Part shown: in pieces, positions 18,001-24,000 of the stretch
Position numbering within the stretch: the stretch's first letter is position 1
Layout: the number at the start of each line of letters is the position of its first letter
Assembly: GCF_045037415.1 (NCBI RefSeq)
Contig: NZ_CP173438.1
DNA length: 64,000 bases
DNA from: Escherichia coli
GTDB taxonomy: Bacteria > Pseudomonadota > Gammaproteobacteria > Enterobacterales > Enterobacteriaceae
Strand: one strand, 5' to 3'
Program-made: the position numbers

Positions 18001-21000
18001 TGGCGTCAATGCAACGGTATTTTGATAGGTTTTTTCCGCTTTACCGTCATCGCCTTTAAAGCGGACATTGGAAAACTCGGTGCCACCCACCAGACCCGGT
18101 TCGATGTCGGTGACGCGCACCGCCGTACCATGCAGGTCCGTACGCAGATTCAGGCTAAATTGACGAACAAACGCTTTCGTCGCACCGTAAACGTTACCAC
18201 CGGCATACGGCCAGCTACCTGCCGTTGAGCCAATGTTAATAATATGACCATGATTACGTTCAACCATACCCGGTAAGACGGCGCGCGTCATATATACCAG
18301 GCCTTTGTTGTTGGTATCAATCATCGTTTCCCAGTCTTCAATGCTGGCTTTATGAGCAGGCTCCATGCCCAACGCCAGGCCGGCATTGTTTACCAGGATA
18401 TCAATATTGCTCCACTCGGCAGGGAGCGATGCCAGCATCTCTTCAATAGCGGCGCGGTTGCGAACGTCCAGTTGGGCGATATACAGATTATCTCCCAGTT
18501 CGTCTTTTAACTCCTGCAACCGCTCCTGGCGACGACCAGTGGCGATAACTTTATGCCCTTGTTGAATAAAACGACGAGTAATGCATTCACCAAAACCTGC
18601 CGTTGCTCCAGTTACTAAAACGATCATCTCACTGTTCCTCAACGATTTTGTGTGTCAATAACATAGCACGTGATGCTTAAGAGCGGGTAATACTGGTTTG
18701 CAAGATTGCACTCCGTTATCAGTAAGCCTACGCTATGGAACACCTCGCGTTCAGGAGAAGAAAATGACAACAATGAATCCTTTCCTTGTGCAAAGCACAC
18801 TGCCGTATCTGGCTCCCCATTTTGATCAAATTGCCAATCATCACTATCGCCCGGCATTCGATGAGGGAATGCAGCAAAAGCGGGCAGAAATTGCTGCCAT
18901 CGCGCTTAACCCGCAAACACCTGATTTCAACAATACTATTCTGGCACTGGAACAAAGCGGAGAATTACTTACCCGCGTTACCAGCGTCTTTTTTGCGATG
19001 ACTGCGGCGCATACCAATGATGAATTACAGCGTCTTGATGAACAGTTTTCCGCTGAACTGGCGGAACTTGCGAATGATATCTATCTGAACGGGGAATTAT
19101 TCGCGCGGGTAGATGCTGTCTGGCAACGCCGTGAATCCCTGGGGCTTGATAGTGAATCCATCCGCCTGGTGGAGGTGATTCATCAACGTTTTGTCCTTGC
19201 CGGAGCCAAACTTGAGCAAGCTGATAAAGCAAAATTAAAAGTACTGAATACAGAAGCTGCGACCCTGACCAGCCAGTTTAACCAGCGGTTACTGGCAGCA
19301 AATAAATCCGGCGGTCTGGTTGTGAACGATATCGCGCAGCTGGCAGGAATGAGTGAACAAGAGATTGCGCTGGCGGCAGAGGCGGCTCGCGAGAAAGGTC
19401 TGGATAACAACTGGCTGATTCCGCTGCTGAATACCACCCAGCAACCAGCGCTTGCTGAACTGCGCGATCGCGCGACGCGTGAAAAACTGTTTACTGCGGG
19501 CTGGAGGCGAGCGGAAAAAAATGATGCCAATGATACCCGCGCTATCATTCAACGTCTGGTGGAGATCCGCGCGCAGCAGGCGAAACTGCTTGGTTTTCCT
19601 CATTATGCCGCATGGAAAATCGCCGATCAGATGGCAAAAACGCCAGAAGCAGCGCTCAACTTTATGCGGGAAATTGTTCCAGCGGCGCGTCAACGTGCGA
19701 GCGATGAATTAGCCTCCATACAGGCGGTTATCGATAAGCAGCAGGGCGGGTTTAGCGCGCAGCCGTGGGACTGGGCATTTTATGCCGAGCAGGTAAGACG
19801 TGAGAAATTCGATCTCGATGAAGCGCAGCTCAAGCCATATTTTGAATTAAACACGGTGTTGAATGAAGGCGTATTCTGGACTGCGAATCAGCTCTTCGGT
19901 ATTAAGTTTGTCGAACGTTTTGATATTCCTGTCTACCATCCTGACGTTCGTGTGTGGGAAATTTTTGATCATAATGGCGTGGGGCTGGCGTTATTTTACG
20001 GTGATTTCTTCGCCCGTGATTCAAAAAGCGGCGGCGCATGGATGGGCAATTTTGTTGAGCAATCAACGCTGAATGAAACGCACCCGGTAATTTATAACGT
20101 CTGCAATTATCAGAAACCCGCTGCCGGTGAGCCTGCGTTGTTACTCTGGGATGATGTAATAACCTTATTCCATGAATTTGGTCATACGCTGCACGGCCTT
20201 TTTGCCCGCCAGCGTTATGCCACGCTTTCCGGCACCAACACGCCGCGTGATTTTGTCGAATTTCCGTCGCAAATCAACGAACACTGGGCAACACATCCGC
20301 AGGTATTCGCTCGCTACGCCCGGCATTATCAGAGCGGGACCGCAATGCCTGACGAACTTCAACAGAAAATGCGTAATGCCAGCCTGTTCAATAAAGGGTA
20401 TGAGATGAGCGAACTGCTTAGCGCCGCACTTCTCGATATGCGCTGGCATTGCCTGGAAGAAAACGAAGCAATGCAGGATGTCGATGATTTCGAATTGCGG
20501 GCGCTGGTGGCGGAAAATATGGATCTTCCTGCTATACCGCCACGCTATCGCAGCAGTTATTTCGCCCATATTTTTGGTGGCGGATATGCCGCAGGTTATT
20601 ACGCTTATCTGTGGACGCAAATGTTGGCCGATGATGGTTACCAGTGGTTTGTTGAGCAGGGCGGATTAACGCGTGAAAATGGGCGGCGTTTTCGCGAGGC
20701 GATTCTTTCCAGAGGTAACAGCGAAGATCTGGAACGCCTGTACCGACAATGGCGCGGTAAGGCACCTCAGATTATGCCGATGTTGCAACATCGTGGCTTG
20801 AACGTATAAACACCACCAATGGCTGGCCTGGATTTATCGCCAGACCAGCCTCGTTATAGCAGTAATTGCAGCCGCTGGGCGAGGGCAAACTTCACCGCTA
20901 ATGCGAATGCCGTTTCGCAGTCGCCAGCAAAATTACTTTTTTTGTATACTCTTCCGTTATAATAATTTTCAAATTCAGCCGGACCAGATGATCAACATTA

Positions 21001-24000
21001 GCGGCAGTCTGGATAAGAAAAGCGCGCCGGCCGTCGTTCGGGTCACTCATTTGCAGAAATAAAAATAAATTAGCCTGATGGCCTGAACTACTGGGCCATT
21101 AGGGTATTGGGTTATGCTATTTGTCATCCTTTTAATTGCGATAATGCAGAGTTAATTTATAGAATTAAACACTTTTTTATCTGCTGATTTTGTTTTAAAT
21201 CACAATGTTATCTCAGAGATGCTCATAACTTCGGATTTCTATGAAAATATTGACGTAATTTTGCTTTTCTCTCGTTAGAATAGCGCGCACAAGGAACTGT
21301 GAAAAAGGAGTGGCAATGATCAAGAAGACAACGGAAATTGATGCCATCTTGTTAAATCTCAATAAGGCTATCGATGCCCACTACCAGTGGCTGGTAAGTA
21401 TGTTTCACAGCGTGGTCGCGAGAGATGCCAGTAAGCCAGAAATAACGGATAACCATTCTTATGGACTGTGCCAGTTTGGTCGGTGGATTGATCATCTGGG
21501 GCCACTCGATAACGATGAATTACCTTACGTTCGGCTAATGGATTCTGCCCATCAACATATGCATAACTGTGGTCGGGAATTAATGCTGGCTATTGTTGAA
21601 AATCACTGGCAGGACGCGCATTTCGACGCTTTTCAGGAAGGGTTGCTTTCTTTTACTGCGGCATTAACCGATTACAAAATTTATTTGCTTACGGTCCGTA
21701 GCAATATGGATGTTCTGACGGGATTGCCGGGTCGTCGGGTTCTTGATGAATCCTTCGATCATCAGTTACGCAATGCTGAACCTCTGAATCTTTATTTAAT
21801 GTTGTTGGATATAGACCGATTTAAATTGGTTAATGATACCTACGGGCATTTAATCGGCGATGTAGTATTACGCACCCTCGCAACTTACTTAGCCAGTTGG
21901 ACGCGCGATTACGAAACGGTTTATCGCTACGGGGGCGAAGAATTTATCATTATTGTCAAAGCGACTAATGATGAAGAAGCATGTCGTGCAGGTGTCAGAA
22001 TTTGCCAGTTAGTCGATAACCATGCCATCACACATTCTGAAGGGCATATCAACATTACCGTGACTGCTGGTGTGAGTCGTGCATTTCCTGAAGAGCCTCT
22101 GGATGTGGTCATTGGAAGAGCGGACAGGGCAATGTATGAGGGTAAGCAAACCGGAAGGAATCGCTGCATGTTTATTGACGAACAAAATGTGATTAACCGA
22201 GTTTAAGCTCCGTTTAACATTCATTGAGAAAACTGATGCTACTGTGTCAACGATCCGTTATCAGTGCAGGAAAATGCCTGTTAGCGTAAAAGCAAAACAC
22301 AAATCTATCCATGCAAGCATTCACCGCCGGTTTACTGGCGGTTTTTTTTCGCCGTCATAAAAATCAGGCCCCTTGTACACAACTGTAACAAGGGGCCGGT
22401 TAGGTGAGGGATTATCTCCGTTCATTAGTCATCCCATTTGTGGCTGAAATACGCGGCCAGAAACCCAGAAAATAAAATTATTCCCAGTACGGCCATAAAA
22501 ACATTCATATTACCCAGCATTATTTGCCTCCGTTTATGGTGTGGTGTGTTTCCTCGCTTACCTTAATTTTCATCTCAATGAGAAAGATATTAGCAGAGGT
22601 AACCTAAACGAAGGCTGAATTAAATTCTTATTGTGTTCGACTTAAATCAACAAAGCGCGGGCTGCCCCCACGGTCTTGCACGAATTCCTTTTAACATCAG
22701 CACCCACGCAACAACGATCACCAACGCTAAGATGATAAACAGCGAGAAAGGCGGCAGACTGGTAAGTACTATGCCACTCACTAATGGGTTAATCGCAGCA
22801 CCAAGCCAGCCTAAAGACTGGGCGGAAAAATAGCTGGCTTTCATTCCTGGCGGCGCAATATGGTCAATCAACATATACTCGCCCGGCGCATAAATGATTT
22901 CACCGACAGTAAATACCGCAGCTGACATACCCCACATTAGCAGGCTGTTGCCGGAAAAAATAAAACCGACCAGCCCGATGACGAAACAGAAGGTGCCTGC
23001 TGTCATCAGCGCGCGGATGTTAGCCGGGTTAAGGCGGCGGCCTACGGAATATTGCAACGTAACTACCATGGCAGCATTCACCGGAAGAACAACCGCGACC
23101 ACCTTTTCGGCAAAATCACCATCAGCAATCACCATCACATATTGTGAAATGCATGAAGCAAATGCGCCGCTAACAAAAGAAGCCAGAAAGCCAGAGCAGG
23201 TAAACCACAACAGTGCTTTATCTTGTAATAAAACTTTCGGCGACCAGACACTGCCTGTTTCCGTGGCGATGATTTTCTCGCTGCGCTTTACCCAAATTTG
23301 AATGAAAAGCATGGGAAACGCGGAACAGATAGCTGCCAGCCAGAAGGGCAGATTGATGCTCTGCATCACCAACAGCGTGCCGAGTGGCGGACCGATGGTC
23401 CAGCCAATGTTGAGCATGGTGTAGTTGATTGAGAAAATCTTCGTTTTGCTGGTGGACGAAAGATTGTCGGCAAACCAGGCTTTCAGCACGGTAGCAAAAA
23501 CGGAGTAGGCGCAGTTAATAAGGGCAAAAAAGAGCACCACCAGCGTCACGTTATTCACTAAAGGAATGGCAATAAAACCGCTAGCGAAGGCGGTAATTGC
23601 CAGTAACATATAGCGTTTCTTGTCGAACTTATCCGCCAGGATACCAAAACCGAGGCTAAAAACGACGCCAATAGTGAGCGCAATTGTCATCGCATAACCG
23701 ATTAGATCGACACTCAGGCTGTACTGGCGACTCAAGTAAATGGTCATAAACGGCAGCGTAGCGCCGCGTCCGATGGTTAATAACAACGACGAGGCAAGAA
23801 GGGCGCTGGTAGAGCGTCGTAGGGATAAGTTCATTTGTCTGTCCGGCAGTGCGTTTCGTTATGTTTTGTTTTAGAGATGTAAAGGAATAGCATGGCAAAA
23901 ATCCGAAGTATAGCGACTTATTTGCGCATTAATGCCGTCGTAAACGGTGACTAACGAATCAACTGTTAAAGAAAAGTAAATTCAGCTAAGTTGATTGCTT

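Follow-up and report, generated by a model that had tools for sequence, protein, structure and literature searches.

Two deletions probably account for the dcp-dgcZ spacer of an Escherichia coli genome in which the dgcZ control region is retained

The 506 bp that separate dcp from dgcZ in the window, the 64,000-nucleotide stretch of E. coli DNA analyzed here (GCF_045037415.1, contig NZ_CP173438.1), are very probably a deletion scar, judged from sequence comparison: two deletions of ~0.5 kb appear to have removed most of ydeJ and ydeI and to have spared a standard, CsrA-type dgcZ control region. The spacer (20810-21315) runs from the dcp stop codon (20807-20809) to the dgcZ ATG at 21316. Upstream lies dcp (18764-20809, plus strand, from the ORF list and the RefSeq annotation of identical DNA), encoding the 681-aa peptidyl-dipeptidase Dcp, which is identical to K-12 Dcp at 670 of 682 aligned positions with the stop codon counted. 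Downstream is an intact dgcZ, also called ydeH (21316-22206, plus strand), whose 296-aa product is annotated on identical DNA as RefSeq protein WP_000592832.1 and differs from the K-12 protein by two substitutions, I127V and A217T. The same place in K-12 MG1655 holds two genes, ydeJ (519 bp) and ydeI (393 bp); we take YdeJ to be of the PF02464/CinA type and YdeI to be of the BOF/YgiW type with an OB-fold. A sequence-only reading of the window had described about 500 bp devoid of ORFs, with ydeI and ydeJ missing relative to K-12. Both statements agree with the alignment, in which each gene is reduced to a C-terminal stub; the ORFs of 38-53 aa that mechanical calling returns in the spacer all derive from the deleted genes, as stubs, antisense reads or chimeras.

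Gene remnants and deletion junctions

The whole 506-bp spacer can be aligned with the corresponding K-12 sequence, and the alignment has just two gaps. Each base is accounted for in this way, and no foreign or IS DNA was found in the spacer. On the dcp side, 79 bp of the 3' end of ydeJ remain (20854-20932, minus strand), comprising the stop codon and about 25 codons, with 74 of 79 nucleotides identical to K-12. Translated, this stub matches the C-terminus of K-12 YdeJ at 22 of 26 residues. In RefSeq it is a pseudogene that has been wrongly named '2-oxo-tetronate isomerase'. Only the last 25-26 of 172 ydeJ codons are thus retained, and a complete frame with a start codon is absent. The first junction, Δ1, lies at 20932-20933 in a three-way alignment. 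Relative to K-12, Δ1 comprises 475 bp, made up of 35 bp upstream of ydeJ and the 5' 440 bp of the gene (85%), start included. Next to the junction is a 41-bp remnant of the divergent ydeJ/ydeI intergenic region (20933-20973; 35/41 nucleotides identical to K-12), which contains the hexamers TATACT and TATAAT.

The second junction, Δ2, was placed at 20973-20974 by alignment with L003 and K-12, and has a 2-bp TT microhomology. It corresponds to a loss of 504 bp when compared with the allele that has ydeI intact, or 503 bp when compared with K-12, and took out the ydeI promoter region together with the 5' 304 bp of ydeI (77% of the gene). What is left of ydeI is an 89-bp 3' stub (20974-21062, plus strand) with a single mismatch to K-12 (88/89). 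In the RefSeq frame, which is annotated as a pseudogene, it spans 20973-21062, 29 codons plus the stop, and 28 of its 29 residues are identical to YdeI; the last 28-29 of 130 codons are retained, and here too a complete frame with a start codon is absent. The sequence-only reading had named remnants with intact frames as the observation that would speak against the loss. The exact alignment to K-12 returned a 26-codon ydeJ remnant and a 29-codon ydeI remnant, neither with a start codon, so no intact frame was found. On this comparison, ydeJ and ydeI are present in the window as pseudogene remnants, homologous and syntenic to the K-12 genes, and not as genes.

Just 3' of the ydeI stop codon, and upstream of the dgcZ promoter, an inverted repeat forms a hairpin (21071-21106, plus strand) with a folding energy of -21.9 kcal/mol (z -3.4). 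It is also kept in a divergent Escherichia genome (L005, below), and it is the former end of the ydeI transcript.

The dgcZ promoter and leader

Neither deletion reaches the control region of dgcZ, which should therefore be the standard one, with a CpxR-like box in the promoter and a ~28-nt leader. Over the 254-bp ydeI-dgcZ intergenic region, 248 positions are identical to K-12, and all six changes lie upstream of about -94, the last 90-94 nt before the dgcZ ATG being identical. Of 5382 records matching a 100-bp query over promoter and leader, 5325 did so at ≥99% identity. The -10 hexamer TAGAAT, read from the sequence at 21276-21281 (plus strand), is the same in K-12, 042 and E2348/69; from the hexamer spacing, transcription would start at ~21287-21289. 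A consensus scan did not call this known promoter, whose hexamer spacing is outside the model of the scan. Over the -35 region, on the minus strand at 21250-21264, a pattern match detected a CpxR-box-like GCAAA-N5-GTCAA (8/10 to GTAAA-N5-GTAAA). RegulonDB, as cited in PMC13131220, includes a CpxR site for dgcZ, and these bases are its putative location in the window.

The dgcZ 5' leader (21288-21315, plus strand) is identical to that of K-12. Two GGA motifs with a spacing of 14 nt are found in it, and their exact positions are 21293-21295 and 21307-21309. The sequence-only reading had put both in the context of the Shine-Dalgarno sequence. Both positions hold, but the overlap is true of the second motif only, which is inside the AGGAG (21306-21310) that precedes the ATG by 5 nt; the first, 14 nt further 5', falls within the loop (6 nt) of a hairpin with a CACA/UGUG stem (21288-21301), seen in both the minimum-free-energy and centroid folds. 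This hairpin has 4 bp and an energy of -2.8 kcal/mol (z +0.94), and is thermodynamically trivial. GGA occurs at a frequency of 0.012 per position, giving a naive probability of ~0.046 for two or more in 28 nt, with one of the two being the Shine-Dalgarno sequence itself. The significance of the pair comes from the identity of this leader with the experimentally studied K-12 leader, and not from statistics alone.

Jonas et al. 2008 is said to be the primary report of CsrA binding to ydeH. PMC4066749, citing Jonas 2008, counts ydeH/dgcZ as a validated target of the kind that CsrA binds at several positions around the Shine-Dalgarno sequence, and PMC13131220 cites RegulonDB for two CsrA sites in this gene. 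CsrA has been shown to act on both the translation efficiency and the RNA stability of dgcZ in K-12 (PMC5694010). In E2348/69, which carries the same dcp-dgcZ allele as the window, fusions with CsrA-binding sequences showed little or no activity (PMC13131220). A CsrA dimer bound to both GGA motifs would block ribosome binding, and translation would be repressed and the mRNA destabilized. For K-12, whose sequence here is identical, this mechanism is already in the literature, and it would carry over to the window by identity, in keeping with the earlier suggestion that the leader is compatible with CsrA repression.

Allele history and alternative explanations

How widespread is this allele? Carriers were counted with 50-mers and a 91-mer, probes in which neither half is enough to seed a match; these replaced a longer query of 101 bp spanning the Δ2 junction that had over-counted, as the search joins pieces over the 504-bp gap. 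Of 5426 complete E. coli genomes, 1037 have both junctions together, ST131, S88, 83972 and E2348/69 among them, and at least 607 others, strain 042 included, have Δ1 alone. The Δ1 junction was found in 1629-1644 genomes (1629/5426 with the 50-mer) and the Δ2 junction 50-mer in 1036. Since the count for Δ2 is matched by that for both junctions, Δ2 is nested in Δ1. The intermediate allele, with Δ1 and an intact ydeI, is found in GPEC657 and 042. We envisage two independent deletions of ~0.5 kb with little or no homology at their ends, the earlier taking most of ydeJ and the later most of ydeI, with Δ2 arising in a genome that already carried Δ1. The spacer lacking ydeJ and ydeI is a common lineage polymorphism, real but ordinary, and its stubs are already flagged as pseudogenes in RefSeq; our literature search on the ydeI/ydeJ deletion found no paper describing the polymorphism.

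For comparison outside this set, a contig scan with the degenerate dgcZ coding pattern YGLCQFGRWI yielded a single record, the Escherichia genome L005, which is 85-92% identical to the window. The dgcZ leader is unchanged there (28/28), while the promoter is identical at 56 of 66 positions and the upstream region at 108 of 139. This genome also lacks both ydeJ and ydeI, with breakpoints at K-12 reverse-complement positions 4834 and 5869. As these breakpoints differ from those in the window, the loss there was independent. It is conceivable, if unlikely, that loss of ydeJ and ydeI beside dgcZ is recurrent and possibly selected, stepwise in the ST131, ST95-type, E2348/69 and 83972 lineages and independently in L005, with every event sparing the dgcZ promoter and leader. 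Were that so, dgcZ transcription might have been rewired, for example through the removal of interference or read-through from the ydeI promoter, or through the shift of the 41-bp remnant to a position upstream; alternatively, loss of the envelope-stress protein YdeI might be adaptive in pathogen-rich lineages.

The distribution of alleles could also be read in the opposite direction, with a short ancestral spacer into which ydeJ and ydeI were inserted in K-12-type strains. Short and Δ1-only alleles do occur in the deep-branching lineages 042, E2348/69 and S88, and the divergent Escherichia genome is likewise without both genes. An insertion, however, cannot yield what is retained in the window: both genes have kept their 3' ends (79 bp of ydeJ, 89 bp of ydeI), correctly ordered and oriented and at 94-99% identity. 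The different breakpoints in L005 point to an independent loss. Given these homologous 3' stubs, we rejected ancestral absence of the two genes as extremely unlikely. That the genes are missing through an assembly or collapse artefact of one sequence was likewise rejected, and has practically no chance of being correct, given that over 1000 independent complete genomes share the junctions at 98-100% identity.

A different question is whether the scar, once formed, encodes something new. An ATG-initiated chimeric ORF of 53 aa (20901-21062) is in frame with the ydeI stub and ends at the ydeI stop codon, and a small RNA might be transcribed from the TATAAT/TATACT hexamers: one promoter-like site spans 20921-20950, and the former ydeI terminator hairpin is downstream. 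But the ATG at 20901 is not preceded by a Shine-Dalgarno sequence, and the promoter-like site would initiate downstream of that ATG. Such sites are equally frequent in shuffled sequence (2 found vs. 1.4 expected), a permissive Rfam scan gave no credible match in the spacer, and RefSeq has only the pseudogene stubs there. A new product is thus very improbable, and the ORF owes its existence to the two junctions alone. Only slightly less improbable is the proposal that the two GGA motifs are a Shine-Dalgarno sequence plus a chance trinucleotide, with dgcZ here free of CsrA control. The weak statistics (P ~0.05) and a leader hairpin no more stable than those of shuffled sequences speak for chance, while the leader is identical to one for which CsrA binding and regulation have been reported (PMC5694010 and PMC4066749), the reporter evidence from E2348/69 concerns the same allele (PMC13131220), and the leader is invariant over 15% genomic divergence. 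A deletion scar next to a conserved dgcZ control region is the reading we retain, and none of the evidence speaks against the deletions.

Both ydeJ and ydeI are missing from about 19% of complete E. coli genomes, and ydeJ from at least a further 11%. The K-12 arrangement should not be assumed in ST131, ST95-like strains, EPEC E2348/69 or 83972 when YdeI and YdeJ phenotypes or the upstream regulation of dgcZ are considered. The use of these results is as an annotation note, and they hold little new biology; the dgcZ leader, unaltered in the window, is a textbook target of the Csr system.

The dcp-proximal hairpin and comparison with known systems

Between dcp and the convergent ydeJ stub is a GC-rich inverted repeat (20821-20850), 12 nt after the dcp stop codon and 3 nt after that of ydeJ. 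Its arms, GGCTGGCCTGG (20821-20831) and CCAGACCAGCC (20840-20850), are complementary at 10 of 11 positions and enclose an 8-nt loop. As RNA it folds better on the minus strand (-25.6 kcal/mol, z -4.0) than on the plus strand (-20.0 kcal/mol, z -2.2). The hairpin is present in K-12, in 042 and in the divergent Escherichia genome, where one G-C pair is replaced by a compensatory U-A pair. The sequence-only reading had proposed that this palindrome may be the dcp terminator. The palindrome is real, but the U-tract expected of a terminator is missing: the stem is followed by UCGUUAUAG on the plus strand and AUUGGUGGUG on the minus strand, neither of which has one. A terminator scan of 20700-21400 on both strands called no site, the hairpin being passed over because it has no T-run. 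A role as dcp terminator is plausible; at best, the element is a hairpin that both genes share and that has no U-tract, a candidate for a shared transcription-end hairpin. Most likely, an old hairpin once common to dcp and ydeJ would still mark or stabilize the 3' end of dcp.

The closest known counterparts of the window at this locus are those of E2348/69, ST131, S88 and 83972, which in RefSeq have the same two-deletion allele, the same pseudogene stubs and the same DgcZ protein (in E2348/69, WP_000592832.1). E2348/69 differs from the window by a few SNPs in the dcp-dgcZ region, with 97.8% identity over the 91-mer. The K-12 ydeH/dgcZ leader is like that of the window from about -94 to the ATG, including the CpxR-like box, the -10 hexamer, both GGA motifs, the Shine-Dalgarno sequence and their spacing. 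In contrast to the window, the K-12 locus has the ydeI gene and its promoter 250 bp upstream; the leader itself does not differ. Compared with bidirectional intrinsic terminators between convergent genes, the dcp-proximal hairpin is similar in its GC-rich 11-bp stem, its folding on both strands and its compensatory conservation, but has no U run after the stem on either strand. Among multi-site CsrA leaders, those of pgaA, cstA and glgC resemble that of dgcZ in having GGA motifs in the 5' UTR, one overlapping the Shine-Dalgarno sequence and a further one 5' of it in the loop of a hairpin. The GGA spacing in such leaders and in dgcZ is compatible with one CsrA dimer bridging both sites. Unlike those of pgaA, cstA and glgC, the dgcZ leader is far shorter (~28 nt), with two sites only and an upstream hairpin of 4 bp.

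Loss of ydeJ and ydeI through two nested deletions

In K-12 MG1655, ydeJ (b1537) and ydeI (b1536) occupy the interval between dcp and dgcZ (ydeH), as the sequence-only reading had correctly stated. In the window, dcp (18764-20809, +; matching K-12 Dcp at 670/682 aligned positions with the stop codon counted) and dgcZ (21316-22206, +; 296 aa, two substitutions relative to K-12) are separated by a 506-bp spacer at 20810-21315, the extent first reported, and the ORF list has nothing inside it but mechanical ORFs of 38-53 aa. Several complete E. coli chromosomes match a 901-bp query around the spacer at 100% identity. 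Using BLAST and a three-way MAFFT alignment that set the window beside K-12 and the intermediate allele of strain GPEC657, we found that all spacer bases are homologous to K-12 and that the difference consists of two clean gaps, with no IS element or foreign DNA in the spacer. One deletion, Δ1 (junction 20932/20933), removed 475 bp, of which 440 bp belong to ydeJ and contain its start codon and 35 bp lie upstream. The other, Δ2 (junction 20973/20974, with a 2-bp TT microhomology), removed 504 bp relative to GPEC657 or 503 bp relative to K-12, so that ydeI lost its promoter region and its first 304 bp. Two nested deletions thus destroyed both genes. What remains is, in order, 44 bp between the convergent dcp and ydeJ, a 79-bp ydeJ 3′ stub (20854-20932, −; 22/26 residues shared with the C-terminus of K-12 YdeJ), 41 bp from between the divergent ydeJ and ydeI (20933-20973), an 89-bp ydeI 3′ stub (20974-21062; 28/29 residues shared with YdeI) and the 253-bp ydeI-dgcZ intergenic region. 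Both stubs are already pseudogenes in the RefSeq annotation. In hundreds of genomes RefSeq/PGAP calls the ydeJ-stub pseudogene (20854-20934, −) either '2-oxo-tetronate isomerase' or 'hypothetical protein'; the former looks like a misnomer, because the stub translates to the YdeJ C-terminus.

These remnants prove that ydeJ and ydeI were lost by deletion and exclude the possibility that they were ancestrally absent. The sequence-only reading had proposed aligning the interval to K-12; the alignment shows remnants, neither with a start codon, and the intact ydeI or ydeJ frames that would have spoken against that reading are absent. Its observation is confirmed, and its interpretation is supported with refinements. 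The presence of the allele in more than 1000 independent genomes likewise rules out an assembly artefact. The two junctions do create a chimeric 53-aa ATG ORF (20901-21062, +), annotated nowhere, whose start is antisense to the ydeJ stub and whose end shares the frame and stop codon of the ydeI stub. However, the idea of a new small gene or RNA within the scar finds no support: this ORF is not preceded by a Shine-Dalgarno sequence, promoter-like matches in the scar are no commoner than in shuffles, and an Rfam scan returned no match there.

A hairpin shared by dcp and ydeJ

The palindrome near dcp, earlier proposed as a possible dcp terminator, has arms at 20821-20831 and 20840-20850 that pair at 10 of 11 positions around an 8-nt loop. 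Since it lies 12 nt past the dcp stop and 3 nt past the ydeJ stop, it is a hairpin common to this convergent pair. The RNA fold is −20.0 kcal/mol (z −2.2) on the dcp strand and −25.6 kcal/mol (z −4.0) on the ydeJ strand, where the mismatch is a G·U pair. The palindrome is perfect in K-12 and 042; in a divergent Escherichia record (NZ_JAATUR010000028.1, hereafter L005) its flanks are scrambled and the stem is retained; one pair differs by a compensatory change from G-C to U-A, and one is a wobble. A U-tract is absent on both strands and a terminator scan made no call; the hairpin thus falls outside the canonical intrinsic terminators by one defining feature. It plausibly acts at the dcp 3′ end, which its conservation supports, and may end or stabilise the dcp transcript.

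The dgcZ promoter and leader

Neither deletion touched the promoter, leader or coding sequence of dgcZ, all of which are intact and of the standard form. GGA motifs, previously placed at about 21293 and 21307, lie at 21293-21295 and 21307-21309, the latter within the AGGAG Shine-Dalgarno (21306-21310), 5 nt ahead of the ATG. Judged by the −10 hexamer TAGAAT (21276-21281), transcription probably starts near 21288, giving a leader of ~28 nt. The extreme 5′ end of the leader is predicted to fold into a CACA/UGUG hairpin whose 6-nt loop holds the first GGA, as is usual for CsrA sites, but its stem, at −2.8 kcal/mol, is weak and not better than shuffles. A CpxR-box-like pattern match, GCAAA-N5-GTCAA, is found at 21250-21264 (−). 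The final 90-94 nt ahead of the ATG are identical in the window, K-12, 042, GPEC657 and E2348/69, and a 100-bp promoter-plus-leader query has at least 99% identity in 5325 of 5382 matching records. Between L005 and the window, 28/28 leader, 56/66 promoter and 108/139 upstream positions are identical; a 55-nt identical run ranks 21st among the 1269 runs of this comparison, which is suggestive, not proof, of constraint.

Multiple CsrA sites around the Shine-Dalgarno are described in a passage of PMC4066749 (citing Jonas et al. 2008) that places ydeH/dgcZ among experimentally validated CsrA targets. In transcriptome-wide data CsrA affects both how efficiently dgcZ is translated and how stable its RNA is (PMC5694010), and a biophysical model singled out dgcZ for two closely spaced high-affinity sites (PMC6028588). 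A 2026 study (PMC13131220) examined dgcZ of E2348/69, gave the RegulonDB sites at dgcZ as two CsrA, one CpxR and one CysB, and reported little or no activity for E2348/69 dgcZ fusions with CsrA-binding sequences. This strain has the same two-deletion allele and the same DgcZ protein as the window. The leader, called compatible with CsrA repression in the sequence-only reading, is the same as the K-12 sequence with published CsrA regulation; since the sequence is unchanged, what is said here of CsrA was already established. Two GGAs per 28 nt are statistically unremarkable (naive P ~0.05, one being the Shine-Dalgarno), but their occurrence by chance is contradicted by published CsrA binding and regulation; the CsrA reading is carried by identity to the studied sequence and by conservation, not by GGA statistics. 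From the literature on identical sequence, a CsrA dimer would bridge the two GGA sites, 14 nt apart, and cover the Shine-Dalgarno, blocking ribosome loading and shortening mRNA life, while CpxR would activate the promoter. The deletions themselves may be neutral for dgcZ expression.

Several further features surround dgcZ. An otherwise identical genome, isolate '131' (NZ_OX030701.1, our locus L008, 855-1622), has an IS1, flanked by a 9-bp target duplication, inserted at window-equivalent 21145-21153; this point lies 163-171 bp upstream of the ATG, past the ydeI stub and before the dgcZ promoter. A promoter-like TTGCGA-18-TAGAAT (21136-21165, +), ~150 nt upstream of dgcZ, corresponds to TTACGA...CAGAAT in K-12, and both SNPs in the window allele shift the hexamers toward consensus; the site may be due to chance (2 found vs. 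1.4 expected). A few E. coli genomes (48/5426 with the 100-bp query) lack the dgcZ promoter and leader. In RM10740 (NZ_CP043821.1) the match begins only at window 21365, the dgcZ 5′ end and everything upstream being missing or rearranged. Just downstream of dgcZ, a strong STnc560 Rfam match (282 bits; 22218-22431, +) marks the locus that K-12 annotation assigns to the MgrR small RNA, with mgtS and mgtT on the opposite strand in the RefSeq annotation of identical DNA.

Frequency and recurrence of the loss

Carriers were counted among 5426 complete genomes with junction-spanning queries, each half being too short to seed a match by itself. The Δ1 junction was present in 1629-1644 genomes (upper estimate from joined matches, 1799), the Δ2 junction in 1036, and both within a single match in 1037. 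Since the last two counts all but coincide, Δ2 arose on a background with Δ1 already in place. Both deletions are found in an O25b:H4-ST131 strain, S88, 83972 and EPEC E2348/69, and Δ1 alone, with ydeI intact, in 042 and GPEC657. No paper on this ydeJ/ydeI polymorphism turned up in a literature search.

L005 was deposited as E. coli SCPM-O-B-8794, yet has only 85-92% identity to the window across 13.6 kb. It lacks ydeJ-ydeI through one independent ~1.03 kb deletion with other breakpoints than in E. coli (reverse-complement ~2376-2431, equivalent to window 20925-21035), so that ~125 bp of ydeJ survive at its 3′ end, and of ydeI only the final 28 bp. The loss of ydeJ-ydeI is thus recurrent, stepwise in E. 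coli and independent in a divergent Escherichia, and the dgcZ control region was spared each time.
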